Of a stretch of 45,899 nucleotides of DNA, positions 6,435 to 45,899 are shown piece by piece. Under the pieces are notes generated by a model. That model saw only the letters and a program-made list of their open reading frames with translations, did not search any database and had not been told where the DNA came from. The stretch covers positions 1 to 45,899 of the forward strand of contig CADBQM010000304.1 in assembly GCA_902796795.1 (NCBI GenBank). Reading direction: 5' to 3'. The stretch is from an uncultured Eubacteriales bacterium. Lineage in GTDB: Bacteria > Bacillota > Clostridia > Lachnospirales > Lachnospiraceae. The translations under genes and the position numbers were made by a program. Position 1 is the stretch's first letter, and each line of letters begins with the position of its first letter.

Positions 6435-6446
6435 GCCGGCACCTCC

Positions 6447-9662: not shown

Positions 9663-10379
9663 TCAGAATCCCGACCGCAGGATGATGGCACGCACATTCT
9701 GGGCGCCGCCGAAGCCCCGCAGGAACGTATGCTTCGGGAGCTTCTTCACCTGGCGTTCGCCGGCTTCGCCGCGCATCTGGGTGACCGCTTCGAAAACGTC
9801 TGCCATGCCGGACGCCGCAAAAGCATGTCCGTAGGAGGTCCGTCCGCCGTGAGTATTCATGGGCTTGTCGCCGTCGTAGGCGATCCGGCCGCCGAGATAC
9901 CGTCCGTAGGCCCGGTCAAAGATCGAATCGGGATCCGGGAACAGGACTTCCGAGGTCATCGGAACACGCATGAACGCCGGGGTATTGCCTTCCGGCATGC
10001 CGGTCCCCTGCTCGCTGCAGCCGCTGAGGACGATATCGTACATCCCGCTCGCCACCGCCATAACGGCCTCTTCCAGCGCGATGTAGCCGGTGCAGCAGCC
10101 TTCGGAATGAGAGACAGATCCTTTGCCGCGCATGCCGAACCAGTCCGCGACCTGCAGGTTCGGGGTAATGCAGCGGTTCAGGATGTAGGGATTTGCAGAA
10201 CCGTGGAAGAAAAACTGGACGTCCCTGGGCTCCACCCCGGCATCCTTCATGGCGTCCAGGGCTGCATGGCCGAAAAGCTCGCCGTTCGTCAGGCCCTTAT
10301 AGACAGGATTTTCCACCCCGTTGAAGAATGGTGTCTTCCGTGATGTCCGCAGCATCCTTTTCAAATGCCATTGCCGCAA
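9663..10379 (-). pseudogene. Internally deleted SCP-x-type thiolase-like gene (relic of a paralog of 42622-44364)
   Basis: The 238-aa ORF aligns to residues ~21-165 and ~355-430 of the fusion protein (SEGCCTGY vs SEACCTGY; YDGDKPMNTHGGRTSYGHAFAASG vs YDGDKPINTNGGRTSFGHAHAASG). About 190 central residues and the first beta-strand (IIGVG) are missing. Confidence 0.7.
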
Positions 10380-10430
10380 ATTCGATCAGTTTTTGATCAG
10401 TTCTTCTCTTTCCTTTTTTTCCTCCTTCAT
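10324..10430 (-). pseudogene. Frameshifted 5' stub of an acyl carrier protein gene
   Basis: ATG at 10430 overlaps the MATE stop (ATGA). The reading MKEEKKEREELIKN stops at TGA. Adding one A to the A5 run (plus-strand T-run 10390-10394) restores ...ELIKKLIEFAAMAFEKDAADITEDTIL, an ACP helix-I/loop pattern. Homology then switches, out of frame, into the thiolase relic. Confidence 0.45.
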
Positions 10431-13361: not shown

Positions 13362-13380
13362 CGTCCGCATCCTTTCTGCT

Positions 13381-14562: not shown

Positions 14563-14591
14563 CCGGAATCCTCCTCTCTTCCTGTCTGTGA

Positions 14592-17271: not shown

Positions 17272-17284
17272 TATGCCTTTTCCT

Positions 17285-18511: not shown

Positions 18512-18540
18512 AAATACTCCTTATCTTTCTCAGGCCCGGC

Positions 18541-20124
18541 TTAGAACACCCAGGCATTGCCGCTCTCCTCGTCGTCGTCATCCGCTGCCATCGGCTCGAA
18601 ATGGAACGGCGGCTTGTACTGTCTCACCAGCGGAAGCAGGACGTCCTGCATGTTCACCGCGGTGTGGCATTCGTCATCGAAGATCATGGTCTGCATCTCG
18701 CCGTCTTTACAGGGCTTCCATTCCGGAAGGCCTTCTACGTTCGGATCACCGGTCTTCGCAAAGTTCACGAACGCGCCGGACATCAGCCGGTCGAGTGTCT
18801 CGTAGTCGCCCTGGTGGCAGAGCGGGATCAGCTCGGCATTGTGGAAGAAGTACGGAATATCGGAACAGTGCCATGCCGCGCGCCCGCCGTCATAATCAAA
18901 CACCTTCGCGAAGATGTAGTTGTAGACCGGCGCCTTGGCTTCGGCTGCTTTTTTCTTTACATAATCCACGGTGGAGGGAAGGAACATGCCGTCCAGATCG
19001 ACCGCATAGACCTCGTTCTTGCCGGGATACTGCTTCCGGTATTCGTCGAGGATCTTCTGTCCGCCCTCTTCGCCGTAATATTCCTTCACGATGCGCTCCC
19101 GTTCTTCCACGGAAAGCTCCGCACGGACGCCGTAATCGCGGATCATGCCGAATTCCGCCACGACGGTACCGACGATCGTCGGGATCTCCAGCGAGAAATC
19201 GGTAAAGTCGTCATCCAGCGGATCTGAGACGTAATAATCGTTCGGCATCGGGGTCCAGCCCACACGCTTGCCTTCCTTGCGGAAATCGGCGATGGCGCCG
19301 TTGACGGCCCAGATGTACTGCGGGACCGGGACCTTCTCCAGCTTCTCCGCTTCAGCTTCCGGGATGTTCAGTTTGGAAAGGATCGCAAGCACCAGCTCCT
19401 TTGCGCTGCAGTCGGAAAGGAAGTCACCGGAGGGAATGACGCCGGACATAACGATCATCTTGTGGAACAGGCCCTTTGCCTCCGGGATCTGGCCGAGGAC
19501 GGTGACCTTTCCGCCGCCGCCGGACTGACCGAAGATCGTGACGTTATCGGGATCGCCGCCGAAGGCCGCAATGTTGTCGCGCACCCAGCGGAGCGCTTCC
19601 ACGATATCCGCCATACCGACGTTGACGCTGTTCTTATATTTCTCGCCGAAATCGGACATATCCAGATAACCGAAGGCGTTCAGACGATGGTTGACGCTCA
19701 CGACGACCACGTCGTCCAGTTTCGCCAGGTTGAAGCCGTCGTAGCAGACCTGTTCGATCGAGGAACCGGCTTCATAGCCGCCGCCGTGGATCCAGAACAT
19801 GACCGGCTTCTTCGCCGCCGGATCGCAGGCCGTCGTCCAGACGTTCAGGTACTGGCAATGCTCGGAGGTGGGCCAGAAACGGTGCGGGGTCTGGACCTCG
19901 CCCGTCGGCATCGGCTCATTCAGGACCGGGCATATCATGCCGTAGGAGCCGGCGTCTTTTACGCCTTCCCAGGCCTTCACGGGTTCCGGCATCTGGAAAC
20001 GTTTTGCCTTCGCATAGCGGATGCCGTAGAAATGATCGACGCCGTTAAAATGGAAACCGCGCAGTTTTCCTTTTGTGGTCTCCACGATCGGCGCCCTGGT
20101 GTTCATGCAGAAATCTTTGACCAT
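18541..20124 (-). CDS. Carboxylesterase type B, 527 aa
   Basis: Motifs YGIRYAKAKRF, IHGGGY and GQSGGGGK. RBS-like AAAGGAA upstream of the ATG at 20124. Confidence 0.9.
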   Translation of the reverse strand: MVKDFCMNTRAPIVETTKGKLRGFHFNGVDHFYGIRYAKAKRFQMPEPVKAWEGVKDAGSYGMICPVLNEPMPTGEVQTPHRFWPTSEHCQYLNVWTTACDPAAKKPVMFWIHGGGYEAGSSIEQVCYDGFNLAKLDDVVVVSVNHRLNAFGYLDMSDFGEKYKNSVNVGMADIVEALRWVRDNIAAFGGDPDNVTIFGQSGGGGKVTVLGQIPEAKGLFHKMIVMSGVIPSGDFLSDCSAKELVLAILSKLNIPEAEAEKLEKVPVPQYIWAVNGAIADFRKEGKRVGWTPMPNDYYVSDPLDDDFTDFSLEIPTIVGTVVAEFGMIRDYGVRAELSVEERERIVKEYYGEEGGQKILDEYRKQYPGKNEVYAVDLDGMFLPSTVDYVKKKAAEAKAPVYNYIFAKVFDYDGGRAAWHCSDIPYFFHNAELIPLCHQGDYETLDRLMSGAFVNFAKTGDPNVEGLPEWKPCKDGEMQTMIFDDECHTAVNMQDVLLPLVRQYKPPFHFEPMAADDDDEESGNAWVF

Positions 20125-28783: not shown

Positions 28784-31159
28784 TTACATCCGCTGCAGCA
28801 CGATCATCCTGAGCTCGTTCATCTCCATACGGAAAGTCAGGAAAAGCGAGCCCTCCGCCGGGGTGCGGACTTCCGAAAGCACCTCCGGCACCGCCGTCTG
28901 GGAAAGATATTCCAGATCGTCCCTGGAAAGATTCTCGATGCTGCCGAGTTCGGTCCACTTTTTGATAATACTGCCGCGGTCCATGTTCATCACACGCTGC
29001 CGGATCCGGTAAGGACTGTTCTCTAAGCCGGTGATATCCAGCTGCATCGCCGCCGGATCGATCGCCTCGAAAATGTCCGGGATCTCCTCTACGCCGAAGG
29101 AGTCCTCCTCCACCATGTAGTAGCGCGGGCCGAGGTGCTTCCGGTTCCAGCAGAGGATACGGATATCGCCGTTGTGATAAGCAGAGGCAAAACAACGGTC
29201 CGTCTGTGCCAGGCGGATGTTCCCCAGTTGTCCGATAAAACGGAAGGCATAATAGGCCGGTTTCCGTACACCGTTTTTCGTCAGCAGGCCGCCGCCGCCG
29301 GAAAGCTCCGCCATGGTATCCGAAAAGGCGGAAAGCAGGTCGGAAGCATAAAAGACACCGACCGTATCCGCGATTCCAAGGATCGGCAGTACTTCACTTA
29401 CCGTCTCGGCCGCCCGGTAACAGCTGTCCTGCAGATAGTTCCGGTTGGAGGTACTGATCCCGTATTCCGTGATCCAGTACTCTCCCTGGAAGCCGGCCTT
29501 ATTCAGCGTCTTCCGGATGGTGCCGGTCTCATTCAGCAGATATTCCCTCTCCGGATTTTTCTCGAAGGTACCGTGTGAATCGACGATCCCGGTCTTTTTG
29601 TAAGGGAAATGTGCGCTCGTGAAAATGTCCGGGACCCGGCTGCTGTTTACCATCCGGGTGACCGCTTCCATCTGCCCGCGCATATCCACGTCCGGCAGCA
29701 GCCCGGGGCCGGCGATCCTGGCCGCCGGAATGATCCTTCGGATCATCTCGTAACTCTTTTCCCAGACCTCACGGAAGGAATGATTTTTCCCCTGATGATA
29801 CTGCGCATCGCTCAGGGAATCCGTCAGCTCAAAGACCCAGTTACGGACCGTTTCTTCGTGATAACGGTTCCTGAGATGCTGCAGCAGTGTCTGAAGCGCG
29901 TCCAGCCATTCGGAAATATCCTTGAAATGTTCCCTGAGCGGCGTAACGTAGATCTCTTTTTTCTCACTTGCCATCTGACGGTCCTTGCGTACCGTCAGAT
30001 CTAGCATGATATTCAGGTGGTGGTCGACGCAGAAGTCCATGATCTCGTCCATCAGAGTGAAGTTATAAACACCGCCCTGTTCGTCAAAGAGCATCAGGCT
30101 GTCCGAGAACGGGCTCCAGAGCCGGATATAATTCACATTCAGCCGTTCCGCAAGAAAAAGCACCTGTTTCTGCATGCTGGCGGAACGCAGTGAGATGATC
30201 GGTCCCACATTCAGGATGCGGTTCTTCCAGCCTGCCCAGGCACTGCCCCGGTCCGCCGGGATCTGGATCCGGTTCACGAATTCGTCCGGCAGGCTCCGGA
30301 GTTCTTCTTCCGACTGCAGGATCTCCAGCACTTTGTCCTTGTCCGGATCATTGGTGACCGGCGGTTCTTCCTGTGCCATGGACTCCCGGTATTTCCCCGG
30401 CGCCATGCCGTAGGTCTCACGGAAGACACGATTCAAGACGGCCGGCGATGAGAAGCCGGCATTCAGCGCGATATCCGTAATGCTGTGGTCGGTATGCAGA
30501 AGCTCGCTCATCACGGCTTTCAGCCGCAGGTTTTTCAGGTACTCCGGGAAATCCTCCCCGGTATAGTATTTGAACAGACGGGAAGCCGTGGACCTGGAAA
30601 GATAGAGCTTTTCCGCGATCTCTGTCAGGCTGATCTCGCTGCGATAATTCATCCATACGTACCGCAGAATCTCCCGGGCTTTGTCGTCCCGGTCGTTTCC
30701 GCTGCTTTCCTGTTTTTCCGAGACCGAAAAATCATCGAGCAGTTTTTGAAGCAGCAGGTAGGACAGGCCTTTGGCCTTATAATGACTGTTTTCCTGATTT
30801 TCGAGGCAGCACATCAGAAGGCCGCGGAGGATGAACTGCAGTTCCGAAGTTTTGGACGTGGCCTCCTTGGTACTGTTCAGATAGAATGTCAGCGAACTGC
30901 GCCCCAGTTCCTTCAAAAGGCTGAAATAAGGAATCTCAAAGACGACTGCCAGCAGTCCATCGCCGGCTTCGACCCGTCCCTCTTCCATCGGATTCAGCAG
31001 CAGCATGTCGGATTTCCGCATCTGCACCGTTTCCTGGGGCAGGATCACATTGCAGCTGCCTTCAACGATAAAAATGATCCGAAGCTTATCAAACGAAGCC
31101 AGAAGGTCCCGGCTGTCATGAAAGATCATATTCAAAAACTGAGTATTCTGTTCTGCCAT
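28784..31159 (-). CDS. AraC-family transcriptional regulator fused to a GH39-like (apparently non-catalytic) sensor domain, 791 aa
   Basis: Trimmed to the ATG at 31159 (GGAGATCATTATG). It has an N-terminal cupin-like part, a central AraC HTH pair (SLTEIAEKLYLSRSTASRLFK...ITDIALNAGFSSPAVLNRVFRETYG), and a C-terminal GH39-like TIM barrel (RYHEETVRNWVFELTDS, YWITEYG). Confidence 0.85.
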   Translation of the reverse strand: MAEQNTQFLNMIFHDSRDLLASFDKLRIIFIVEGSCNVILPQETVQMRKSDMLLLNPMEEGRVEAGDGLLAVVFEIPYFSLLKELGRSSLTFYLNSTKEATSKTSELQFILRGLLMCCLENQENSHYKAKGLSYLLLQKLLDDFSVSEKQESSGNDRDDKAREILRYVWMNYRSEISLTEIAEKLYLSRSTASRLFKYYTGEDFPEYLKNLRLKAVMSELLHTDHSITDIALNAGFSSPAVLNRVFRETYGMAPGKYRESMAQEEPPVTNDPDKDKVLEILQSEEELRSLPDEFVNRIQIPADRGSAWAGWKNRILNVGPIISLRSASMQKQVLFLAERLNVNYIRLWSPFSDSLMLFDEQGGVYNFTLMDEIMDFCVDHHLNIMLDLTVRKDRQMASEKKEIYVTPLREHFKDISEWLDALQTLLQHLRNRYHEETVRNWVFELTDSLSDAQYHQGKNHSFREVWEKSYEMIRRIIPAARIAGPGLLPDVDMRGQMEAVTRMVNSSRVPDIFTSAHFPYKKTGIVDSHGTFEKNPEREYLLNETGTIRKTLNKAGFQGEYWITEYGISTSNRNYLQDSCYRAAETVSEVLPILGIADTVGVFYASDLLSAFSDTMAELSGGGGLLTKNGVRKPAYYAFRFIGQLGNIRLAQTDRCFASAYHNGDIRILCWNRKHLGPRYYMVEEDSFGVEEIPDIFEAIDPAAMQLDITGLENSPYRIRQRVMNMDRGSIIKKWTELGSIENLSRDDLEYLSQTAVPEVLSEVRTPAEGSLFLTFRMEMNELRMIVLQRM

Positions 31160-31175
31160 AATGATCTCCGAATAG

Positions 31176-31216
31176 AAAAAACTTCTGTTCCGGCCAGCGA
31201 CAGCCGGCCGGAACAG
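31176..31216 (-). terminator. Intrinsic terminator/attenuator between the flavoprotein gene and the regulator gene
   Basis: Perfect 11-bp GC-rich stem CUGUUCCGGCC/GGCCGGAACAG (31185-31195 and 31206-31216) with a 10-nt loop. On the minus strand it is followed by AAGUUUUUUCUAUU, which runs straight into the regulator RBS. Confidence 0.75.
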
Positions 31217-31225
31217 GTTCAAGGA

Positions 31226-32173
31226 TCACTCTCCGACGTGAAGATATTTCTCCTTCAGTTCTCTCAGGTTCTCTACCTTCTTCTGGGTCATCGCACCATT
31301 CGCGATCTCGTTCCGGTGCTCCAGCTTGCCGCCCCAGCGCATACGGGAACGGTCCTGCTCCGCCTGCGAGAATTCGTAGGTCGCGGAACCGGCCTGCATC
31401 TTTACGACGCCGTGGATGCCGCAGATCGCGCATTCTACATGATCGGTGCCGGGATATACCCGGAACATGCTCTGGTGGCAGACCGGGCAGGCGCCGGGCT
31501 CCTCGCCGCGCCATTTCGTGCGTTCTTCGTCGGTCTCCGCCGCCAGCGCTGCGATGACGTTCTCCGCCATCTTGTCCGCACGCGCCATCTGCTCCGGCAC
31601 GCCGAGGATGTGCGATACGTTCATCGCGCCGTAATAGACGTGGGTGTCGATGACGTCGACGCCCGCCGACATCATGCCTTCGTACATGATCGGGATGGTC
31701 ATGATCGTCCAGTTCTCGGTCCTTGCGCCGCCGACGCCGACCAGGCAGCCGATCCTCGGCTTGAACGCGCGCTCATCCGGCATCAGCGGATTGCCGTTTG
31801 CCAGCCGTTCCTTCTTTGCTTCCGCAAGGAAGGTGATATCATGCGACGGGCCGAAACGGTCGCAGAAGGTCTTGAAGGTGCCGGAGGGCGAGGTCTCGTA
31901 GACCGGGGAACCGATCAGCACGCAGTCTGCGTCGTAGTAGGCATCCTCGAGGATGTGGAAATCGTCCTTGTGGATGCAGGTCCCGTTGGTCCTGCCGGAC
32001 ATGATGCCGACCACGCAGGCACAGCAGCCGGTACAGGGCTTGATGTCAAGATCATCCGGACGGATGAATCTGATCTCATGGCCGGCTTCCTGACATTTCA
32101 GCAGCACCTCTTTTAGGAACACGTCCGTATTGGACATCTTTCTGCCGAAAGAAAACGCTGTAACTTTGCTCAT
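31226..32173 (-). CDS. Flavodoxin-fold NAD(P)H-dependent FMN reductase-like protein with an N-terminal Cys cluster and C-terminal Zn ribbon, 315 aa (candidate ene-reductase)
   Basis: RBS AAGGAGG. Cys-rich motif KPCTGCCACV...GTCIHKDD as in iron-sulfur flavoprotein-type reductases, a GSPVYE FMN-site-like motif, and two CxxC pairs (CPVCHQ...ECAICG). Confidence 0.7.
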   Translation of the reverse strand: MSKVTAFSFGRKMSNTDVFLKEVLLKCQEAGHEIRFIRPDDLDIKPCTGCCACVVGIMSGRTNGTCIHKDDFHILEDAYYDADCVLIGSPVYETSPSGTFKTFCDRFGPSHDITFLAEAKKERLANGNPLMPDERAFKPRIGCLVGVGGARTENWTIMTIPIMYEGMMSAGVDVIDTHVYYGAMNVSHILGVPEQMARADKMAENVIAALAAETDEERTKWRGEEPGACPVCHQSMFRVYPGTDHVECAICGIHGVVKMQAGSATYEFSQAEQDRSRMRWGGKLEHRNEIANGAMTQKKVENLRELKEKYLHVGE

Positions 32174-33806: not shown

Positions 33807-36590
33807 TTAATCAAGTTCTGAGATATATCTTGCTGCTTCCATGCCTGCGATGCGCCCCGTGTTCACTGCGAAGCCCATGGAGTTGCCGGGCAGCAGGAAC
33901 ATGTAGCTGTCGTTGTAGAGGTTGCAGGCGTCCGCGCCGGCTGCGTAGAGGCCAGGGATCGGATAGAAATCCTTGTCACAGGCTTCGCAGTTATCGTTGA
34001 TGCGGATGCCGCCGACGGTACCGTAGGCGCCGGGGCCGATCTTGCAGGCGTAGAACGGTGCCTTGTAGATCGGACGAAGATACCGGCCGGGCTTGTAGAA
34101 CTGCGTGTCGGTCGTATCGCAGAAGCCGTTGTACTCGTCGACGGTCTCCCGAAGGATCTCTGGGTCCGCGCCGAGCTTTTCGGCCAGTTCTTCGATCGTA
34201 TTTGCCACGATCGGATATTCGTTCTTGTTCTCCTCCGCCATTTTGATGCCGTCATAGAAATCAGAGACGTCCGTATTCGAACGTACCATGCTGACGACGT
34301 CAACGCCGTTCCGGATGTATTCACGGACGATCGAATCGTCGACGATCGAATACGAGGAGCGGTCCTTCTGATAGCTGATCGCATTGGAGAGGAAGGTCGT
34401 GTTCTGCATGTATTCCTCGTTCATGAAGCGCCGGCCGAAGGCGTTGACCAGGAGGTTCGGCTGGAAGAAGATACTGGAAACGCTGTCCGGCAGCCCTTCG
34501 ACGCCGACCATCATCGCCGCCTGCTCCATCCGGACCTGTACGTGGTCCACGCCGGCTTCCCAGGCCATCCTGAGACCGTCGCCGGTAATGCCCGGGATCG
34601 CGAAGTTGAACATGTCCTTATTGAAGGTATAGCCGGTCTCCTGATAGATCATTTCCGGATTCGCGCCGGCACCGCCGGTGCAGATGATCGCCGCCTTGCA
34701 GTTCACCCGGACCTTTTCGCCGGACGAGGTCTCCGCCAGGACGCCGGTCACACGCTCGTCTTCCTTGACGATGTGCAGCGCGCGGGTCTCCAGCAGGAAT
34801 TCGACGCCGAGCTCCAGCGCCTTGTTGTAGAGAGCCTTGTTCATGAAGGAAGCTGCACGCGGTCCGATCCGCTGGCCGCTCTTCACGATATGCCAGGTGC
34901 ACTCGGACTGCGGGAAGTAACGAAAAGCGCCTTCAAATTCCACGCCCATGCCTTCCAGCCATTCGATGGTCTCCGCGGACTGCGTGAAGTAGCGCTTGAC
35001 GAGCCGTGCGTCCACCTGGTAGTGCGTGTATTCCATGAACATGTTGAAGGCCTTTTCGACCGTGATGTCTTCCATCTGCTGCTTCTGGTACTTCGTCCCG
35101 ATGCCCAGGGGGCCCATGCCCATGTTTGCCGCGCCGCCGACCGCTGCAGCCTTCTCAAGCACGATGACCTTCGCGCCCTTCTCCGCTGCCTGGACCGCCG
35201 CCGAAAGGCCGGACGGGCCGCCGGCGATCACGCAGATCTCTGTATCGTAAGTCTTCATCTGATCTCCTTCCTGAAGGAACTTGGTGATGTCAAAAGCTTC
35301 ATAAGCCACCGTCTTCGGACCCGAAGCCGGGGCCTCAGCCGTGCTCTTATGCCCTGCGGGCCGTGTGATCCGTTTCGATGCCTTCTTCGTTTCCGCCGCG
35401 CCGCCTGCCGCAGTGCCTCTGCCGACCTTCATCGGACGGTCGGGGAGTTTCGGGAGCGCGCCTTCGGTAACGACGATGGCCTGTTCCGGGCAGACTTCCA
35501 TGCACTTTCCGCAGAAGGTGCAGCGTCCGTTGTCGATCAGGTGGACATAGCCCGGACGGCCTTCGACCGCGTCCGCTTCGCAGACCGCTGCACATTTGCC
35601 GCAGCCGGTGCACTTCGCGGGATCGATGTAGATCTTCTCTTTCCGGAAGCAGACGCCCGCCGGGCACTGCTTCTTCTGATGTGCTTCGAATTCCGCGCGG
35701 TATTTCGCGAGTGCTGTGAGGAGGAAGTCCGCGCCGCGCTGGCCGATACTGCAGAGGGAGGAGAAGTCCATCGCTTCGCCGATCTCTTCGATGATGTCGA
35801 AGTGGCCGGCGTCGCCCTTCCCTGCCTTCACTTCTGCCAAGAAGGCCTGGATCTGCAGGAGCCCCTCCCGGCAGAACGTACACTTGCCGCAGCTTTCCTG
35901 TCTGGACCGGAGCAGTCCGTCGAGCGCGTCCGCGACCAGGCAGTCCTTTTCCGTCACGAAACGAACGACGCCGCTGCCGAGTACGGTCTCCGGCAGGATC
36001 TCGAGCGCTTCCGCCTCTTCCTTCGTCAGCACACGACTGCCGAGCTGAACGGCCTTGAGGCCGGCCGGCAGCGGGAAGATCTCCTGAAGCTTCGTGCCGA
36101 ACGGGGCGGTCTTCACGAGGAAGCCTTCTGCTTCACGGCAGTACAGCCGGATCTCCGGCAGAACGCCTTCCATGAGCTTTGCCAGGGCAAAGGCGGTCTC
36201 GATATGGAAGCGCGCATGCTCCGCGAATTCGCGTGCCGGGACGATCCCGCAGCGGATCTCGTCCGGGAAGCCGGCCGCTTCTTTCTGTGTTTTAAGTGTC
36301 TCCGCAAGCGCTGTTTCTTCTTCCGGCAGATACAGGACGGCTTTTTCCGCGTCCGTCAGCTCCTTCAGAAGCACGATGCCGCGGAACACCGCCTCCGCTT
36401 CTTCCCGAAGCAGTACGAGCAGCGCACGGTCAAAATCATTATTGTTCAGGGCGACGGCGATGTCTGCCGCCCCGCCGGTCTCTTTCAGGCGGCTGAGTTC
36501 CGCAGCGGCTTCTTCTATCCGCGCTGCGAGCGGCTCGTTGTAGACGCCGTATTCGCGGAGTCCGGCCGCACGTACGTCTTCGATCCTCAT
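33807..36590 (-). CDS. Multidomain Fe-S flavoprotein: degenerate NuoF-like module (SLBB plus 4Fe-4S), 2x[4Fe-4S] ferredoxin, then a fumarate-reductase/KstD-family FAD domain, 927 aa
   Basis: The ATG at 36590 overlaps the upstream stop (ATGA). NuoF-type cluster motif ESCGKCTFCREG...LCSIGQ, with no FMN/NADH glycine-rich motif. Ferredoxin motifs CTGCGKCAAVCE and CTFCGKCMEVCP. A low-complexity linker is followed by the FAD dinucleotide motif ICVIAGGPSGLSAAVQAAEKGAKVIVLEK, and GLYAAGAD near the C-terminus. Confidence 0.8.
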   Translation of the reverse strand: MRIEDVRAAGLREYGVYNEPLAARIEEAAAELSRLKETGGAADIAVALNNNDFDRALLVLLREEAEAVFRGIVLLKELTDAEKAVLYLPEEETALAETLKTQKEAAGFPDEIRCGIVPAREFAEHARFHIETAFALAKLMEGVLPEIRLYCREAEGFLVKTAPFGTKLQEIFPLPAGLKAVQLGSRVLTKEEAEALEILPETVLGSGVVRFVTEKDCLVADALDGLLRSRQESCGKCTFCREGLLQIQAFLAEVKAGKGDAGHFDIIEEIGEAMDFSSLCSIGQRGADFLLTALAKYRAEFEAHQKKQCPAGVCFRKEKIYIDPAKCTGCGKCAAVCEADAVEGRPGYVHLIDNGRCTFCGKCMEVCPEQAIVVTEGALPKLPDRPMKVGRGTAAGGAAETKKASKRITRPAGHKSTAEAPASGPKTVAYEAFDITKFLQEGDQMKTYDTEICVIAGGPSGLSAAVQAAEKGAKVIVLEKAAAVGGAANMGMGPLGIGTKYQKQQMEDITVEKAFNMFMEYTHYQVDARLVKRYFTQSAETIEWLEGMGVEFEGAFRYFPQSECTWHIVKSGQRIGPRAASFMNKALYNKALELGVEFLLETRALHIVKEDERVTGVLAETSSGEKVRVNCKAAIICTGGAGANPEMIYQETGYTFNKDMFNFAIPGITGDGLRMAWEAGVDHVQVRMEQAAMMVGVEGLPDSVSSIFFQPNLLVNAFGRRFMNEEYMQNTTFLSNAISYQKDRSSYSIVDDSIVREYIRNGVDVVSMVRSNTDVSDFYDGIKMAEENKNEYPIVANTIEELAEKLGADPEILRETVDEYNGFCDTTDTQFYKPGRYLRPIYKAPFYACKIGPGAYGTVGGIRINDNCEACDKDFYPIPGLYAAGADACNLYNDSYMFLLPGNSMGFAVNTGRIAGMEAARYISELD

Positions 36591-38704
36591 GCCGTCACCT
36601 CCTCTTTGCTTACGTCGCTCCAGAGTCTCGGACGCGAGATCTTCAGCGCCAGGTCACACTGCAGGCAGCGCTCCGCTTCCGCGCAGATGCTGCAGTCGGA
36701 GATACCGTGGTCGAAAAGGCGGAAGTTGTCTGCACGCATTTCGGCGGGATCCGCATCCGTTTTCTTCCGCTCCAGATAGCCGAAGCCTTCGATCTTCCCG
36801 ATCTTCGGATCCGCATGCTGTTCCGGCGCCAGTTTTTCTGAGATATCCCCGTCGCCGCCTAAGTAGCGGTCGATCTCCGAAGCTGCCTCACGGCCGGCTT
36901 CGATGGCCTGGATCACGGATTTCGTGCCGTAGACCACGTCGCCCGCGCCGAAAATGCCCTCCGTGGAGGTCGCGTTCTTTCCGGGGAGACAGACCACATA
37001 GCTGCCGCGGAAGAGCTCCAGGCCGCTGACCTCCGAAAGGTCCGGGTGCTGGCCGACCGCGAAGATTACGGTGTCCGCGTCGATGTGATGCTCCGAGCCT
37101 TCTTCCTTCTCGGTGATCGCACGCCGGTTCTCGTCAAAATGGAAGCCGAGCACATTCATGAAATCCACACCGGTCACATGATCTTCGCCGGTGATCCGTT
37201 CGAAGCTCTGTGCCGGATGGACGAAGATGCCTTCTTCCTTCGCCTGTTCGATCTCTTCATCGTCCGCGGTCATCTTTTCACGAGCTTCGAGACAGGCGAC
37301 ATGGATCTCCTTCGCGCCGAGGCGTCTTGCGGATCTTGCGCAGTCAAACGCCACGTTGCCGCCGCCGAGCACGATGACCCTTTCGCCGATGCCGGTCGGC
37401 AGGCCCATAGAGCAGTTCCTCAAGAAATCAATGTTCAGGATGACGCCCGGAAGATTTGAACCGGGGATCGGGAGCTTGGTGCCGACGTGCGTGCCGATCG
37501 CGATCAGTACCGCGTCGTAGTCCGCAAGCAGCTTCTTCGGCTCGGTAATCCGTTCATTGTATTCGATCTTCACGCCGGTATCCGTGATCACGGAAACTTC
37601 GCCGGCCACGACTTCCCGCGGGAGACGGTAGGCCGGAATGCCGTAGCGCATCATGCCGCCGGCTTCCGGAAGCGCTTCCTTCACGGTGACGTCGTGGCCC
37701 TGTTTTCTGAGATAATACGCCGCCGTCAGGCCTGCAGGGCCCGCACCGACGACACAGACTTTCTTTCCAGTATCCGGCAGCTGTTTGCCTCTGCCCTTCC
37801 AGTATTTCCCGCTGTCGTGCTCTGACGCATAACGCTTGATGTTCCGGATGGACATCGCTTCGTTCACATCGACACGTTTGCAGGCCAGTTCACAGACATG
37901 ATTGCAGACGAGGCCGAGCGAGCCGGGGAACGGCGCCTTTTCACGGATCACCGCGGCGGCTGCGTCATAATCGCCTTCCTTCACGAAGCGGATATAGCGG
38001 GGCACATCCGTATGCGCAGGACAGGATCCCTTGCAGGGAACGGTCCGGTCTTCTCTTGTAAAATCTTTGGTCTGCTCCCGTTCTTTCAGCCGGATGGTGC
38101 CGGTGGGACAGACTTCCGCGCAGGCGCCGCAGAAACGGCAGTCCGCGTCCTTCAATAATTTCTCATGCAGGGTCCCCACATAAGTCTCGAGGTCCTTTTT
38201 CCTGTAGTCCAGGACGCCGACGCCCCGGAGCTCCTGACAGGCGCGCACACAGCGTCCGCAGAGGATGCAGCGGTTCATGTCGTGGATCAGCAGGGGGTTC
38301 CGCTCCTCGGTCTTAAAACCGCGGGTGCGATGCTTCATGCGGGTATTGCTCGCGCCGATATACTGGATCATCGTCTGGAGCTCACAGTTGCCGTATTTGG
38401 GGCAGGTGGAGCAGTCTTCAGGATGGCCCGCGAGCAGCAGCTCCATGGCAAGTTCCCGGAGCTTTTTCAGTTTTTCGCTTTTGGTAACGATCACCATGCC
38501 GTCTTCCGCGGTCAGCTTACAGGAGGAAACGGGATGTTCCTTCCCTTCAACTTCGACGATGCACAGGCGGCAGGAACCGTTTTCCGGAAGATCTTTGTGA
38601 TGACAAAGATGCGGGATATAGATCCCGGCGTCGAGCGCACATTCCAGAATATTCTTATGATCCGGCACGGTCAGCCGGATGCCGTCGATCGTAATATTCG
38701 CCAT
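36587..38704 (-). CDS. Fe-S/NAD(P)H subunit: NuoG/HydA-N-terminus-like [2Fe-2S] plus [4Fe-4S] module fused to a GltD-like FAD/NAD(P)H oxidoreductase, 705 aa
   Basis: RBS AAGGGAGAAG. Motifs: ITIDG...CHHKDL...GSCRLCIVEV, HPEDCSTCPKYGNC, CILCGRCVRAC and CRFCGACAEVCP. GltD-type region CKGSCPAHTDVP...VCNHVCELACKR, with two dinucleotide folds VCVVGAGPAGLTAAYYL and VIVLGGGNVAFDCARSA. Confidence 0.8.
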   Translation of the reverse strand: MANITIDGIRLTVPDHKNILECALDAGIYIPHLCHHKDLPENGSCRLCIVEVEGKEHPVSSCKLTAEDGMVIVTKSEKLKKLRELAMELLLAGHPEDCSTCPKYGNCELQTMIQYIGASNTRMKHRTRGFKTEERNPLLIHDMNRCILCGRCVRACQELRGVGVLDYRKKDLETYVGTLHEKLLKDADCRFCGACAEVCPTGTIRLKEREQTKDFTREDRTVPCKGSCPAHTDVPRYIRFVKEGDYDAAAAVIREKAPFPGSLGLVCNHVCELACKRVDVNEAMSIRNIKRYASEHDSGKYWKGRGKQLPDTGKKVCVVGAGPAGLTAAYYLRKQGHDVTVKEALPEAGGMMRYGIPAYRLPREVVAGEVSVITDTGVKIEYNERITEPKKLLADYDAVLIAIGTHVGTKLPIPGSNLPGVILNIDFLRNCSMGLPTGIGERVIVLGGGNVAFDCARSARRLGAKEIHVACLEAREKMTADDEEIEQAKEEGIFVHPAQSFERITGEDHVTGVDFMNVLGFHFDENRRAITEKEEGSEHHIDADTVIFAVGQHPDLSEVSGLELFRGSYVVCLPGKNATSTEGIFGAGDVVYGTKSVIQAIEAGREAASEIDRYLGGDGDISEKLAPEQHADPKIGKIEGFGYLERKKTDADPAEMRADNFRLFDHGISDCSICAEAERCLQCDLALKISRPRLWSDVSKEEVTA

Positions 38705-41029: not shown

Positions 41030-41326
41030 TCATTGCTCTTTGTAGTCCGGCGCGTAATTGTAGAACGGTGCGAGAAGATCTCCCATATCGTCCTTGTGCG
41101 CCGCGATGTTCTCCCGCACGGTGCCCATCATGTCATGCAGCTCATGATAATGCTCATAGAGCCCGGCAAGCGTGTTCCGTGCGCGTTTCTTCTCCGCGTC
41201 GGAGAAACTGACCCGGATCTTTCCGTCCGTCACTTCCAGGTACCCGTAGATGCCGCACAGGGGGCATTCCACTTCGGTGCCGTTTCCGGTCTTCGCGCCG
41301 CCGACGGAGATCGCAAGGATTTTCAC
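41030..41326 (-). CDS. Small protein (98 aa) that looks like a collapsed relic of the 31226-32173 flavoprotein family
   Basis: GTG start at 41326 after GGAGAAACAAAAC. ILAISVGGAKTGNGTE resembles CLVGVGGARTENWT of the 315-aa protein. EVECPLCGIYGYLEV...FSDAEKKRAR...EH resembles HVECAICGIHGVVKM...FSQAEQDRSR...EH. Only one CxxC pair remains. Confidence 0.45.
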   Translation of the reverse strand: MKILAISVGGAKTGNGTEVECPLCGIYGYLEVTDGKIRVSFSDAEKKRARNTLAGLYEHYHELHDMMGTVRENIAAHKDDMGDLLAPFYNYAPDYKEQ

Positions 41327-41348: not shown

Positions 41349-42347
41349 TTACTGTGCCGCTGCGCGGATCGCGGACATGATGATGTTGCCCTTCAGTTCC
41401 GATACCGGCGCACTTCTGGAGCAGTCGCACACGATCTTCTTAAAGCCCTGGAGCAGCGGTCCGTAGGCGTCCGCGTGGCCCATGATCTGGATCAGCTTGA
41501 CGCCGGCGTTGCCGACGTTCAGGTCCGGCCAGATGATGACGTTCGCCTTGCCGGCGACTTCGCTTTCACGCTTCACTTTCTTTGCCGCAACTGCCGGCAC
41601 GATCGCTGCGTCGAGCTGGAATTCACCATCGATCTTGAGATCCGGCCGTTTTTCCTTCGCGATCTCCACTGCTTCCTTCACCTTGTCCACGAGCGACCCC
41701 TGGCCGGAACCCAGTGTCGAGTAGCTGATGAACGCGCAGCGCGGCTCCCAGTCGAGAAGCTCGTGCACGGTCTCGCAGGCACTGATCGCAATGTCCGCCA
41801 GTTGCTCCGGCGAAGGATTCGCGCAGACGGCGGAATCGCCGACCGCAAGCAGTTCCCCTTCGGAACCCGCAAAGCCCGGGATCTCGCAGAGGCCGATGCT
41901 GGACACCGTAGAGATGCCCTCCTTCAGGCCGACGATCATCTGGCCGGCAAGCAGCACGTCCTCGGTGGTGTAATTGATGCCGGCAAACGTTACGTCCGCT
42001 TCACCGGCGGCTTCCATGACCATCGCAAAATGCAGGGGATCCTGCATACGGCGGTTCAGCGCCTTTTCCTTCAGGCGTGTATCCGGCAGCGCGATGTACT
42101 TTTCGATCAGGCGGGCCTTCATTTCTTCATCCTGCATATCCGCATAGATAAACTTTTCGGGATCCAGGCCCCGCTCAGCAGCGAGCGTCCGGTTCTTTTC
42201 ACTGTCACCGACCAGGATCGCTTTGATGCAGCCTTCCTGTACGCATTCGTAGGCGGCGTGCATCATTTTTTCGTTCTCCGCCTCCGGAAAAGCCACCCGC
42301 ATCGGATGACCGGCGGCTTTTGCGGCAAGCTCCTGAAGGAAACTCAT
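41349..42347 (-). CDS. pta: Phosphate acyltransferase of the Pta/Ptb family, 332 aa
   Basis: Full-length Pta pattern (RVAFPEAENEKMMHA, AGINYTTEDV, AVCANPSPEQLADIAI, IDGEFQLDAA, NVGNAGVKL). Its ATG overlaps the ACP stop (ATGA at 42344-42347). Confidence 0.85.
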   Translation of the reverse strand: MSFLQELAAKAAGHPMRVAFPEAENEKMMHAAYECVQEGCIKAILVGDSEKNRTLAAERGLDPEKFIYADMQDEEMKARLIEKYIALPDTRLKEKALNRRMQDPLHFAMVMEAAGEADVTFAGINYTTEDVLLAGQMIVGLKEGISTVSSIGLCEIPGFAGSEGELLAVGDSAVCANPSPEQLADIAISACETVHELLDWEPRCAFISYSTLGSGQGSLVDKVKEAVEIAKEKRPDLKIDGEFQLDAAIVPAVAAKKVKRESEVAGKANVIIWPDLNVGNAGVKLIQIMGHADAYGPLLQGFKKIVCDCSRSAPVSELKGNIIMSAIRAAAQ

Positions 42348-42586
42348 TCCATCTCCTCTTCTACTTTGTCCACGAGATCGCCGACGGTCTCGCAGGCTGC
42401 GGCGTCCTGAAGCTGGATCATGACGTCCAGTTCGTTTTCGATCTCGGATACCAGGCCGACCATCAGTACCGATGCGCCGCCCAGATCCTCCGCAAAACGG
42501 GTCTCCAGCGTCAGTTCCTCTTCGTCCTTCTTGTAAAGCTGCGCAATGATCTCAAAGATCTGGCTTTCAAGTTCTGTACGGTCCAT
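42344..42586 (-). CDS. Acyl carrier protein-like protein, 80 aa
   Basis: Four-helix ACP pattern with FAEDLGGASVLMVGLVSEIENEL, where canonical ACPs have DLGxDSLdxVEL. The Ser is retained. RBS AAAGGA. Confidence 0.7.
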   Translation of the reverse strand: MDRTELESQIFEIIAQLYKKDEEELTLETRFAEDLGGASVLMVGLVSEIENELDVMIQLQDAAACETVGDLVDKVEEEME

Positions 42587-42621
42587 TGTTGTTCATCCTT
42601 TCTTTTCTATTGATTTTCGGA

Positions 42622-44364
42622 TCACTGATCCTCATCAAGGTCAAATACGACGGTCTTAAAGCCATCCCGCTGGAAGATGGACGCATGTACATTCAGCGGC
42701 AGCTTGTCCAGCAGTTCCTTGCGGCTCTTCTTGGTGATCCCGCGTACAACGGCGTTCAGGCGGCTGCCCTCTTCCAGTTCGATCTCACCGTAGGCAAATT
42801 TGCCGAGCGCCTTGTATTCGGGTTTGTTGCTGAGCGGCGCAGGCAGGACGATGGAATGCATCTTTGCCTTTCCGCTGATCTCGTACCATTCGGTCTCGAG
42901 GCTGCCGCAGCTGTTGCAAGCATAGACCGGCGGGAACTCGACCGCGCCGCACTTCGGGCACTTCCGGCCCATGATCTTTCCTTCTTCCAGGAAATCGTAG
43001 AAGCCCTGGACGATCTTCTGCAGCTCGACCACGGACCCTTTCTTTTCTTCTGCCGGCGCCGGCGTGACTTCCCCGAGCGTGCGGATGATATAGGTGCAGA
43101 TGTTCTGCGCGCCGCCGTAGCCGCGGAGCATGGCCGTCTTCGGCAGCTTCTTCACCTGGCGTGCGCCGCACTCTCCGCGCATCTGTTTCACGGCCGCGTA
43201 AAGGTCCGCAAGGCCGGATGCCGCATGCGCGTGACCGAAGGAGGTGCGTCCGCCGTTCGTGTTGATGGGCTTGTCCCCGTCATAGGCCGTACGGCCTTCG
43301 CAGATGTACTTCCAGCCTTCGCCGTAGGGAAGGTAGCCCGCAATCTCTGCGGAAACAAGATGGGAGGTGATGATGAAGTCGTTGGCGTAGAAGAGGTCGA
43401 GCTCTTCCGGCTTCACACCGGTGACTTCGTAGACCTGGCGGACCGCCTCTTCGGTCGCCGTGACTTCAAAGTGCGGTGTGGTGGCTTCGCAGGCCGCACA
43501 GCCCGCGCCGAGCACTTCGATCGCCGGATGGGACTTATTGCCCATGTATTTGTCGACGAGCTCTGTCGCGCAGACGATCACCGCCGCGGCGCCGTCGCAC
43601 TTCAGCTCGATCCCGCTCATCCGGAGGAAGTCGCCGTTCCTGGGATTGTAGGGAGAACGCATGTAGTCCATGACGTCGTCATAGCCGGCTTTCTTTGCCA
43701 GTTCTTCATACGGCGTTCTTTCGATCGCCAGCTCGTCCATGACCGCGTTCCTGCGGTTGTTCAGACTCATGTGGATGAGGGTCTCGTCCATCTCCTCATC
43801 GGTCAGCCCGCGGGTACGCTTGTACCATTCCGCGGCATCGTCGTAGATCAGCTCCTGTCCTGCCATCAGGCTCCGCGTGTAATTACGGTCATAGAGCCAG
43901 GCTGTAGTCTGCAGGAACTTCTCCATGGTCATTTTTTCGCGCTTGTAGGGATGGTTGGGCACTGCCACGCTGTCGCCGAATTCCACACAGCCGGAAAGCA
44001 CACAGTTATACTTGCCGGAAGCGACGGCATTCACAGCCTGCTCGACTGCATAGTAGCCGGTGCAGCAGGCTTCGGAATGATGGATCGACGCCTTGCCCTT
44101 CATCCCGAACCAGTTCGCGATCTGGATATTCGGGGTCAGGTAATTGGAGCCATTCAGCGGGGATGCTTCACCATGGAAATAGAAATCAATGTCCTGCGGG
44201 TTTACCCCCGCGTCCTCCATGGCGGAAAGCGCCGCGTAGCCAAAGAGTTCACCTTCCGTCAGGCCGTTCGTTTCCGGCCGGTCGACGGTGTACATGAACG
44301 GGGTGCAGCCAACGCCGATGATCGACACGCTGCGGGAATAGGGATTCACCTTGGTCTGATTCAT
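42622..44364 (-). CDS. Fusion protein: SCP-x-type thiolase-like enzyme plus DUF35 (Zn ribbon/OB fold), 580 aa
   Basis: RBS GAGGAGGAGGA. Thiolase part: IIGVGCTPF, active-site Cys context HHSEACCTGY, NTNGGRTSFGHAHAASG. DUF35 part: a linker, then CPKCGAVEFPPVYACNSCG and an OB fold. It is the first gene after the AT-rich promoter region. Confidence 0.85.
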   Translation of the reverse strand: MNQTKVNPYSRSVSIIGVGCTPFMYTVDRPETNGLTEGELFGYAALSAMEDAGVNPQDIDFYFHGEASPLNGSNYLTPNIQIANWFGMKGKASIHHSEACCTGYYAVEQAVNAVASGKYNCVLSGCVEFGDSVAVPNHPYKREKMTMEKFLQTTAWLYDRNYTRSLMAGQELIYDDAAEWYKRTRGLTDEEMDETLIHMSLNNRRNAVMDELAIERTPYEELAKKAGYDDVMDYMRSPYNPRNGDFLRMSGIELKCDGAAAVIVCATELVDKYMGNKSHPAIEVLGAGCAACEATTPHFEVTATEEAVRQVYEVTGVKPEELDLFYANDFIITSHLVSAEIAGYLPYGEGWKYICEGRTAYDGDKPINTNGGRTSFGHAHAASGLADLYAAVKQMRGECGARQVKKLPKTAMLRGYGGAQNICTYIIRTLGEVTPAPAEEKKGSVVELQKIVQGFYDFLEEGKIMGRKCPKCGAVEFPPVYACNSCGSLETEWYEISGKAKMHSIVLPAPLSNKPEYKALGKFAYGEIELEEGSRLNAVVRGITKKSRKELLDKLPLNVHASIFQRDGFKTVVFDLDEDQ

Positions 44365-44522: not shown

Positions 44523-44550
44523 TTGAGAAAAAAAATTGCTGATTTATAAT
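44523..44550 (+). promoter_or_regulatory. Candidate sigma-A promoter of the divergent MATE gene
   Basis: TTGAGA (44523-44528), a 16-nt spacer, then TATAAT (44545-44550), about 70 nt upstream of the ATG at 44622. Confidence 0.5.
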
Positions 44551-44621
44551 GGCTTCATTGCGTAAAACGTTTTCCGGATGAGACGGCCGGTCATCAGCAT
44601 CAGTATTACGGAAGGGGCCCC

Positions 44622-45899
44622 ATGAACACACCGGAGGAAGCATCCGTCAGGAGCAAAAAAGTATATATCACAAAGGACCGCAGTTTTTATAAAAGCCTGA
44701 TCCGCCTCGCGATCCCGATCATGCTCCAGAACATGATCACCTTCCTGGTCGGCTTCGCGGACCATCTGATGATCGGCCGGCTCGGCGATATCGTCGTCTC
44801 CGGCGTCTATATGGGCGGCCAGTTCCAGACCGTGCTCCAGATGTTCACGAGCGGCGTCGAGAGCGCGATCCTGATTCTCGCGGCGCAGTACTGGGGCATC
44901 CGCGACCTTCAGAGCATCAAAAAGATCAGCGCCATGGGCATGCGCTATTCGCTTGCCGCGGCAGCGCTTTTAAATCTGCTGGTCGTTCTTTTCCCGCGTT
45001 TCTTCCTCGGCCTGTTCACGAATGAAAAGGCCGTGATCGAAAGTGCGGTGAGCTATGTGCTGATCACAGCCTTCTCCTACGTCTTCTTTGCCGCCGCCCA
45101 GATGCTGATCGCGACGCTCCGCGCCGTAGAGAACGCGCGGCTCGGTTTCTACGTTTCGCTGGCGGCGCTCTTTATCAACGTTTCCCTGAACTATCTGTTC
45201 ATCTTCGGCGTTACGGTCGGCGGCAGGGAGATCCTGCCGGCGATGGGGATCCGCGGCGCAGCGATCGCGACCCTGATCTCGCGCATTGCCGAATTCCTGA
45301 TCGTCTTCATCTACACGCTGCGCGTTGAAAAGGTCCTGAAGCTGAAAGTTTGGGACTTCCTCCTGAAGGATCCGCTCCTCAGGAAGGACCTCATCCGCTA
45401 CGGGACGCCGGTACTTGCAGGCCAGCTCGTCTGGGCTGTCAACATGCTCGCCTACAGCAGCATCATGGGACACTTAAGCGCCGGCGCCGTGACCGCTTCC
45501 TCGATCGTCGGCCAGTTCGAGAGCCTGCTCCGGGTCGGGACCTTCGGCCTTTCCGCCGCACTCGGCATCATCACCGGGAAGACGGTCGGCGCGGGTCTCT
45601 TCGAAAAGATGAAGGAATATACCCGGACGGCGGAGATCCTCTTCCTCGTGATCGGACTCCTTTCCGGCCTGATCATCCACTTCATGGCCGCGCCTTTCAT
45701 CTCCCTCTACGACATCAGTGAAGAAGCCGTACAACACAGCCGCGACTTTTTCCGTGTCCTGACCTTCACCTACATCGGAACCAGCTGGCAGGCGACCTGT
45801 CTTTCCGGCCTTGTGAAGCCCGGCGGCGACACGGCTTTCGTCTTCAAGAACGACTCGATCTTCGTCTTCCTGGTCATGATCCCCGGCGGCATCCTGGCG
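44622..45899 (+). CDS. MATE family efflux transporter (C-terminus beyond the window)
   Basis: Absent from the track because there is no stop in the window. ATG at 44622 follows GAAGGGG, and 426 codons are open to the window end. MATE signature YKSLIRLAIPIMLQNMITFLVGFADHLMIGRLG, hydrophobic throughout. Confidence 0.85.
   Translation, partial: MNTPEEASVRSKKVYITKDRSFYKSLIRLAIPIMLQNMITFLVGFADHLMIGRLGDIVVSGVYMGGQFQTVLQMFTSGVESAILILAAQYWGIRDLQSIKKISAMGMRYSLAAAALLNLLVVLFPRFFLGLFTNEKAVIESAVSYVLITAFSYVFFAAAQMLIATLRAVENARLGFYVSLAALFINVSLNYLFIFGVTVGGREILPAMGIRGAAIATLISRIAEFLIVFIYTLRVEKVLKLKVWDFLLKDPLLRKDLIRYGTPVLAGQLVWAVNMLAYSSIMGHLSAGAVTASSIVGQFESLLRVGTFGLSAALGIITGKTVGAGLFEKMKEYTRTAEILFLVIGLLSGLIIHFMAAPFISLYDISEEAVQHSRDFFRVLTFTYIGTSWQATCLSGLVKPGGDTAFVFKNDSIFVFLVMIPGGILA

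Follow-up and report, generated by a model that had tools for sequence, protein, structure and literature searches.

Clostridial phloroglucinol and butyrate pathways link a thiolase to a phosphotransacylase (Pta) and an acetate or butyrate kinase, and thiolytic C-C cleavage in them gives a thioester, then an acyl phosphate and then ATP; they use coenzyme A (CoA) and 3-oxoacyl-CoA formed by CoA-transferases. PlsX converts acyl-acyl carrier protein (acyl-ACP) and phosphate to acyl phosphate and ACP, in phospholipid synthesis rather than ATP formation. Two-component thiolase/DUF35 architectures are found in the benzoylsuccinyl-CoA thiolase BbsAB and in the archaeal thiolase/HMGCS/DUF35 complex, both of which act on CoA thioesters and have no ACP, Pta or kinase partner. 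Phloretin hydrolase (Phy), in the FLR-CHI-EnoR/Fcr-Phy pathway of Eubacterium ramulus and Flavonifractor plautii (FLR, flavone reductase), cleaves a C-C bond hydrolytically and conserves no energy. The acyltransferase PhlACB (PpATase) of Pseudomonas protegens pairs the thiolase-like subunit PhlC with the DUF35 protein PhlB, and monoacetylphloroglucinol donates its acetyl group straight to Cys88 of PhlC, accompanied by its DUF35 partner, with no CoA involved (PMC6392133); the C-C bond of an acylphloroglucinol can thus acylate a thiolase-type cysteine in the absence of CoA. PhlACB has a third subunit, PhlA, passes the acyl group to another phenol and uses no ACP, Pta or kinase. Here we describe a trio of genes for a thiolase::DUF35 fusion, a dedicated ACP and a Pta-fold phosphotransacylase in a 45,899-nucleotide stretch of DNA from an uncultured Eubacteriales bacterium of the Lachnospiraceae (contig CADBQM010000304.1), called the window throughout. 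With slightly more confidence than doubt, we propose from comparative sequence evidence that the trio is the core of a conserved, energy-conserving catabolic module, in which thiolytic cleavage of a non-CoA, flavonoid-derived aryl ketone would give acyl-ACP, then acyl phosphate and then ATP.

The trio and its upstream signal are laid out as follows.

44446-44417, minus strand: putative sigma-70-like promoter upstream of the trio (TTGACA, 18 nt, TATTGT with extended TG).
42622-44364, minus strand: thiolase::DUF35 fusion, 580 aa; thiolase at residues 1 to ~435, DUF35 (zinc ribbon and OB fold) at residues ~446-580.
42344-42586, minus strand: dedicated ACP, 80 aa; phosphopantetheine presumably attached at the Ser of G-A-S-V.
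41349-42347, minus strand: Pta-fold phosphotransacylase, 332 aa; proposed acyl-ACP:phosphate transacylase.

Every gene of the window's large cluster lies on the minus strand, and the trio comes first, after a 256-bp intergenic region. A preliminary description of this DNA had claimed a promoter before the trio, three genes carrying the motifs SEACCTGY, GHAHAASG and EDLGGASVLMV, and an overlap between the Pta start and the ACP stop. The promoter-like site was found at the position given above, the motifs are all present in the translations, and the overlap reads ATGA in the sequence (Pta ATG 42347-42345, ACP stop 42346-42344); a sequence scan detected no minus-strand terminator-like site between the three genes. 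Pfam matches were to Thiolase_C_1 (1.5e-27), Thiolase_N (weak, 4.8e-05) and zf-ChsH2 (1.1e-08) for the fusion protein, to PP-binding PF00550 (5.2e-11) for the ACP and to PTA_PTB PF01515 (2.1e-86) for the Pta. The thiolase/DUF35, PP-binding and PTA_PTB proteins are members of known superfamilies and score below the curated cutoffs of every characterised subfamily.

The same arrangement recurs well beyond this contig. A scan of GTDB species genomes returned 272 matching stretches, of which the best 80 loci were annotated by phmmer with the window proteins; neighbours were counted over 54 genome loci of at least 12 kb, and the remaining open reading frames (ORFs) were clustered de novo. A metagenome scan used as seeds six distant-clade thiolases about 35% identical to the window protein, and 28 of its loci were counted. 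Thiolase, DUF35, ACP, Pta and usually a butyrate-type kinase occur together in neighbourhoods from three unrelated sources, and the same gene order is seen in about 150 independent loci from several Bacillota families; the trio is therefore more than a chance association. The order thiolase-DUF35-ACP-Pta-kinase was found in Lachnospiraceae, Oscillospiraceae, Erysipelotrichaceae (Dielma) and Clostridium, and the module was recovered again in metagenomes, even in relatives that share no more than 35-40% identity with the seeds; phosphopantetheinyl transferase (PPTase) genes are often inside the operon there, and a single contig sometimes has several thiolase/DUF35 paralogues. Of the 54 genome loci, 52 have an ACP gene near the thiolase, 49 a Pta gene and 41 a kinase gene; in most relatives the kinase gene adjoins that of the thiolase or Pta. 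Judged from these comparisons, the module is real, old and widespread in gut and rumen bacteria. As first described, thiolase and DUF35 are fused in the window, but this is a minority state, most relatives having two separate genes: the closest homologues (85-89% identical) are unfused thiolases of 431-435 aa, and fused homologues appear at 60-70% identity, one of them from Dielma fastidiosa.

By sequence and predicted fold, the fusion protein is a member of the SCP-x/archaeal-type, DUF35-associated thiolase-like superfamily. Its AlphaFold2 model (pLDDT 87.5, pTM 0.90) was matched by Foldseek to SCP2, archaeal, BbsB, PhlC and Ltp2 structures with TM-scores (TMt) of 0.77-0.89, at 18-28% identity to solved thiolase-like proteins; BbsAB and the archaeal complex fall at TMt 0.82-0.84 and 23-24% identity. 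The zinc ribbon of the DUF35 part (CPKC...CNSC) is present, and the DUF35 chains 6esq_E, 9myr_B and 6ok1_B were matched in the PDB. A cluster-representative search recovered a separate clade of 'long' thiolases (~430 aa), with full-length matches down to about 28% identity, and generic 385-390-aa SCP-x or archaeal thiolases scored far lower. The nucleophile is Cys100, invariant in the alignment of relatives, within a family signature of H64-G-E, HHSEAC100C, AN328DF and GH378AHAAS counted in 171 relatives. Nearly all of these have GH378A, that is GHA instead of the generic GHP, and about 157/171 carry the H64 motif HG[EQSA], a family-specific His.

In SCP2-thiolases, the 'HDCF' motif supplies a His and an acid/base Cys that act on CoA-ester enolates, for which C337A and C123 mutant structures among the Foldseek matches offer a comparison. 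At this position the window protein reads ANDFI and about 155/172 module thiolases read xNDF, whereas the generic relatives in the same alignment have VHDCF and the Pyrococcus thiolase has HDAF; archaeal thiolases keep the His of the HD(C/A)F motif, unlike the module enzyme. The protein scored 59.6 bits against TIGR01930 (acetyl-CoA C-acetyltransferase; cutoff 240.55), and its best NCBIfam model gave 136 bits against a cutoff of 420. On family scores, loss of the HDCF motif and 18-28% identity, it is not an ordinary acetoacetyl-CoA thiolase, and that assignment was rejected. These features argue against ordinary CoA chemistry and set the module thiolase apart from the usual CoA Claisen enzymes.

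PhlC offers partial parallels. It too has lost the His and Cys of HDCF (IDVAQVY298DLLGA; YDLL versus NDFI here) and has GHA rather than GHP at GH347A, as read from primer-derived peptides; in the same primer-derived peptides, a YHGE/FHGE match between the essential His56 of PhlC and module H64 conflicts with the phmmer alignment offset. Of the PhlC pocket residues Tyr124, His144, Ser349 and Asp352, positions 349 and 352 are His and Ser in the window protein, and overall identity is 19-20%. A special kinship with PhlC was not found: in both Foldseek and phmmer comparisons, PhlC ranks alongside BbsB, SCP2 and archaeal thiolases. We note separately that thiolase residues 61-72 (YFHGEASPLNG) gave a phmmer match to the catalytic-His motif HGTSTPLGD in the C-terminal half of KAS II, possibly a trace of the duplication within the thiolase fold.

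The phosphotransacylase differs from CoA-dependent Ptas at residues implicated in CoA binding. Across 65 module Ptas (Methanosarcina thermophila numbering), the catalytic residues Ser309 and Arg310 never vary, and catalytic Asp316 is in every case replaced by Glu. Arg133 is replaced by Leu, Phe or Met and is retained in none, in an unambiguous alignment column; Arg87 is Pro or Glu and, as aligned, Arg in none, a column that is less certain because most family members have an Arg three residues downstream. The window Pta has Pro and Leu at these two positions, and the five solved Ptas in the alignments shown have Arg at or next to both. Mutation of Arg87 or Arg133 mainly raises the Km for CoA (PMC6461089). 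The substitutions argue against ordinary CoA chemistry and are consistent with module Ptas having been adapted away from CoA. The window Pta scored 257.4 bits against TIGR00651, whose equivalog cutoff is 311.2. The reaction proposed for it is that of PlsX, which belongs to another Pfam family (PF02504); the window Pta had no match to PF02504, and PF01515 was its sole Pfam match at E up to 0.01.

The carrier has the marks of a functional ACP. At least 90% of 66 distinct relatives have the Ser of G-A-S-V, and the acidic helix II (SEIENELD) is likewise conserved among them. The window ACP lies below all NCBIfam AcpP cutoffs (44 versus 70.45), and is therefore not the AcpP of a fatty-acid synthase. 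An AcpS- or Sfp-type PPTase gene lies in or next to the module in 20/54 genome loci (within 10 kb) and in 12/28 metagenome loci. The earlier statement that no PPTase is present is thus accurate for this window but not for the family, many relatives having one in or beside the module. Because the Ser is conserved and PPTase genes stand in or beside the operon, the module ACP looks like a true carrier.

The last module step probably falls to a kinase that in the window lies near a second, decayed set of module genes.

8079-9176, minus strand: butyrate-type acyl kinase, likely last module step.
9210-9647, minus strand: stand-alone DUF35 paralogue, intact, 43% identical to the DUF35 part of the fusion.
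9663-10379, minus strand: paralogous thiolase, 238 aa; residues ~176-356 lost in frame, Cys motif kept.

The kinase scored 412.5 bits against NF002834 (cutoff 222) and 384.6 against TIGR02707 (cutoff 289.1) and matched Thermotoga maritima Buk2 (1saz) at 7e-83, and by these family scores is a bona fide member of the butyrate-kinase family. The paralogous thiolase is 52% and 70% identical to the fusion over its two retained blocks and is, from its internal loss, probably inactive. A decayed second copy comprising thiolase, DUF35 and an ACP stub had been reported beside the butyrate kinase. The thiolase and DUF35 paralogues are there, but tblastn with the ACP found no match at the second copy, where at most a 14-codon ORF is present. 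The claim that ACP, thiolase, DUF35 and an acyl-phosphate enzyme are linked twice is accordingly weaker than it was made to appear, the second copy showing no second ACP linkage. The ORF in question (MKEEKKEREELIKN, 10386-10430, minus strand) has an ATG that overlaps the MatE stop (ATGA) and a faint likeness to the module-ACP N-terminus (M-x-R-K-E-L-E); in the paralogous modules L077, L132 and L165, an ACP gene upstream of the thiolase occupies its place. A second module subtype with the order ACP-thiolase-DUF35 (L016, L077, L132, L133, L151, L162 and L165) is related to the decayed copy and often carries an Sfp-type PPTase and a ~660-aa Fe-S/Pyr_redox protein.

The neighbourhood of the trio points towards flavonoids. 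Downstream on the same strand are a 98-aa ORF, two Gfo/Idh/MocA oxidoreductases, an iron-sulfur (Fe-S)/flavin reductase pair and a DgpB/DgpC-like pair, and the cluster also holds an FMN_red protein, an AraC::GH39 fusion, GH3, an ABC transporter, GH5, many carboxylesterases and other esterases, and MFS and MATE transporters. Beyond the second thiolase/DUF35 copy and the butyrate kinase lie two more carboxylesterases and a second Dgp-like set. Three features bear on the proposed substrate.

31226-32173, minus strand: FLR homologue (FMN_red protein), matching PDB 7d38 over its full length at 1.8e-38; the only solved structure matched.
41030-41326, minus strand: second FLR-like gene remnant, 98 aa; tblastn 40% identity to FLR residues 246-290.
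33807-38704, minus strand: Fe-S/flavin reductase complex of two genes, NuoG/GltD-like (705 aa) and a 927-aa fusion.

We take PDB 7d38 to be the crystal structure of FLR. The FLR homologue is by far the most frequent non-module neighbour (34/54 loci). The biochemistry and crystal structure of FLR have been published (PMC7862272). The 98-aa remnant, between the Pta gene and the first Gfo gene, joins an N-terminal MKILAISVGG in frame to a C-terminal zinc-ribbon part. Locus L012, from a sheep-rumen Lachnospiraceae metagenome-assembled genome, is syntenic with the window at about 80% DNA identity and, like L011 and L055, has an intact 319-aa FLR-like gene at the position of the remnant; the window therefore carries a deletion of about 670 nt. 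The 927-aa protein (33807-36590, minus strand) combines an HydB/NfnB/NuoF-like Fe-S N-terminal part with a soluble fumarate/urocanate-reductase-like FAD domain, as judged from PDB matches. The complex looks like a candidate C=C reductase feeding the module, and like an uncharacterised NAD(P)H- or ferredoxin-linked ene-reductase complex tied to FLR and the module. Its Fe-S/Pyr_redox and FAD_binding_2 subunits are neighbours in 26/54 and 23/54 loci. Less frequent are AraC::GH39 (15/54), PF00756 esterases (9/54), Gfo (9/54) and DgpBC (5/54), and de novo clustering added PucR and TetR regulators, DUF1097 and DUF2798 membrane proteins, an MFS transporter and a SnoaL-like protein.

The recurrent neighbour families of 160 loci include no CoA-transferase, CoA-ligase, beta-oxidation (dehydrogenase, hydratase) or fatty-acid or polyketide synthase family, and no CHI, phloretin-hydrolase, phloroglucinol reductase or cyclohydrolase family; a gene for the HMGS/KAS III-like PhlA subunit is absent from these families and from the window. 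A predominance of generic butyrate-fermentation settings had been named in advance as a contrary outcome; the neighbours are instead FLR, ene-reductase-like and Dgp-like proteins and PucR, TetR or AraC::GH39 regulators.

From gene content, conservation, neighbour counts and residue signatures, we infer the chemical steps, direction and substrate of the following scheme. Cys100 of the thiolase would attack the carbonyl of a non-CoA substrate, giving acyl-S-Cys and a phenol; the likeliest substrate would be an aryl ketone with a phloroglucinol-type enolate A-ring as leaving group, for example phloretin, a different dihydrochalcone or a chalcone, formed after FLR and the Fe-S/flavin reductase have acted. 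The acyl group would then pass to the phosphopantetheine thiol of the ACP, which would stand in for CoA in the thiolysis, with DUF35 as scaffold. The Pta-like enzyme would convert acyl-ACP and phosphate to acyl phosphate and free ACP, and the kinase would yield ATP and a free acid, for example a 3-arylpropionate. The co-location of FLR and ene-reductase-like genes, together with the Dgp-like C-deglycosidases, glycosidases and esterases of the window, points to flavone-derived chalcones or dihydrochalcones, and a kinase of the Buk rather than the Ack type is in keeping with an acyl group bigger than acetyl. The Dielma operon, which consists of a PucR regulator, the module and an esterase, stands alone, a layout that fits a single energy-yielding cleavage of an imported ketone. 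The partnership of a Cys enzyme, a carrier with its PPTase, an Arg-stripped Pta and a kinase, with no CoA-activating enzyme, is most simply explained by C-C thiolysis leading to ATP via ACP. The preliminary description had offered the same sequence of C-C cleavage, ACP, acyl phosphate and ATP; the comparative evidence supports it, with neither an acetoacetyl-CoA thiolase affiliation nor a generic butyrate context coming to light.

Compared with the described systems, the bond proposed to be cleaved is that cleaved by Phy, and the module stands beside FLR homologues as Phy stands beside FLR in known degraders, although Phy is of the unrelated DAPG_hydrolase family. The logic of thiolysis, thioester, acyl phosphate and ATP is that of the clostridial pathways, from which the module differs in having a dedicated ACP, no CoA-activating enzyme and a Pta without the CoA-site arginines. 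What would be new is thiolysis coupled to Pta/kinase phosphorylation with ACP instead of CoA and a non-CoA substrate. A more far-reaching version, which we put forward tentatively and would not yet expect to prevail, is that gut and rumen Bacillota use an 'aryl-ketone thiolase' system in place of phloretin hydrolase, gaining one ATP per flavonoid, in what would be the first catabolic substrate-level phosphorylation from acyl-ACP.

Several observations weigh against the proposed flavonoid-cleaving, ACP-dependent scheme. The kinase of the window is 33 kb from the trio, beside the decayed paralogue. The thiolase is structurally no closer to PhlC than to the CoA-dependent BbsB or archaeal thiolases. 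The Pta is nearer to acetyl-specific Ptas than to Ptb, which is odd for a bulky arylpropionyl group; Arg87 and Arg133 belong to CoA 'site 2', where the effects of mutation are moderate, and the nearby Arg of a PDTR motif might replace Arg87. In about one-third of the larger loci, neither FLR nor any other flavonoid gene lies within 10 kb, and the substrate class may therefore be broader or different.

This last point leads to the alternative that fares best, although we consider it fairly unlikely: the same architecture and energy logic serving another substrate class, such as a cyclic or open beta-diketone (dihydrophloroglucinol, triacetate), a 3-keto sugar derivative, another plant aryl ketone such as a deoxybenzoin, or a curcuminoid. 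The 3-keto sugar would be what is left by Gfo/Dgp-type oxidation and C-deglycosylation, and the deoxybenzoin would be of the O-desmethylangolensin type; action on such other substrates is plausible for some paralogues and for FLR-free loci. Stand-alone operons that lack flavonoid genes (the one in Dielma and the one in L008, whose sole companion is an MBL-fold hydrolase) fit such substrates, as do modules with Gfo, AP_endonuc_2 and DgpBC genes instead of FLR (L102, L123 and L124) and loci with several thiolase subtypes (L016, L077 and L091-L100), which suggest several substrates. However, FLR is a neighbour in 34/54 loci, compared with 9 for Gfo and 5 for DgpBC, and phloroglucinol reductase and cyclohydrolase are missing from the recurrent families. 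In L091-L100 (metagenome contigs Ga0123353 and Ga0082212), one AcpS-Pta-kinase set has around it two or three paralogues of thiolase/DUF35, some fused (~610 aa) and others split, suggesting that a single ACP/phosphorylation backend serves several substrate-specific thiolases.

Reversal of the scheme is improbable. It would make the module an ATP-driven C-acylation system, in which kinase and Pta would charge ACP with a short acid, which thiolase/DUF35 would hand on to a carbon nucleophile in a Friedel-Crafts or Claisen-type acylation, like PhlACB or MucABC. The Pta and Buk reactions are reversible, the relatives PhlC and MucC are C-acyltransferases and ACPs are typically biosynthetic; yet the neighbours are catabolic (glycosidases, esterases, deglycosidases, transporters and substrate-type regulators), there is no PhlA/HMGS-like partner and there are no tailoring or export genes of natural-product type, and in fermentative anaerobes, which the hosts are, Pta and Buk normally serve to make ATP.

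We attach just as little probability to an ordinary CoA-dependent thiolase followed by Pta and Buk, as in a variant of beta-oxidation or an acetoacetyl-CoA branch, with the ACP accessory or unrelated. The protein retains the thiolase fold and the Cys/His pair, CoA enzymes are its nearest structural matches and the Pta is closest to acetyl-CoA Ptas. Against this, genes for a CoA-transferase, CoA-ligase, dehydrogenase or hydratase do not accompany the module, the ACP is the partner most often retained (52/54), is translationally coupled to the Pta and is accompanied by embedded PPTases, the acid/base Cys of HDCF is missing, and the CoA-site arginines of the Pta are lost. A type II fatty-acid or polyketide synthase was rejected, neither the window nor the recurrent neighbours containing a ketosynthase, acyltransferase, ketoreductase, dehydratase or enoylreductase; window searches likewise bore out the earlier statement that the first four of these, and a PPTase, are missing there.

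The module is apparently undescribed: full-text searches, with subscription-only papers outside their scope, found no description of a thiolase/DUF35-ACP-Pta-kinase-PPTase assembly, and a screen for quercetin degraders mentions no module-bearing genus (PMC8269047). If the proposed thiolysis via ACP is correct, cleavage of the flavonoid C-ring or side chain would yield ATP in many gut and rumen bacteria, which would explain the investment of fermenters in large polyphenol loci and would supply the missing enzyme of FLR-positive genomes that lack phloretin hydrolase. An ACP would serve as thiol carrier in catabolic substrate-level phosphorylation, with a Pta-fold enzyme acting on acyl-ACP, and a further functional class would be added to the DUF35/thiolase-like group, along with a CoA-free route from aryl ketones to activated acyl groups that might be of use in biocatalysis. 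As a compact and easily recognised marker, present at about 270 loci in GTDB species genomes, the module could then help to predict the formation of arylpropionic acids and phloroglucinol from metagenomes.

Other features of the window and its relatives concern accessory genes. Many related loci have two genes (~390 and ~485 aa) for the parts that are fused in the 927-aa reductase. The two in-frame internal deletions of the window, in the thiolase paralogue and in the FLR-like remnant, may reflect real gene decay or an assembly artefact. An AraC-type helix-turn-helix::GH39-like protein of about 800 aa (28784-31222, minus strand) recurs in different taxa (L001, L015, L016, L049, L051, L060, L087 and others) and is probably a ligand-sensing regulator built on a glycosidase fold. 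Esterase-rich stretches at 4818-8057 and 11793-20124 (minus strand) encode five COesterase paralogues, two PF00756 esterases and one Abhydrolase_10 protein, a richness that suggests acylated flavonoid glycosides or hydroxycinnamate esters as feedstock. A PF00756 esterase often directly adjoins the module in related loci; this family includes the thioesterase S-formylglutathione hydrolase, and the esterase might therefore edit mis-acylated ACP. A 123-aa SnoaL/NTF2-like protein is found near the module in L050, L136, L141 and eight other loci and could be a non-homologous chalcone isomerase or another pathway isomerase. Divergent from the trio, a MATE-family transporter gene (~44621-45899, plus strand) runs off the end of the window; it has its own promoter-like site (TTGAGA-16-TATAAT, 44523-44550), and MATE genes flank the module in other loci too.

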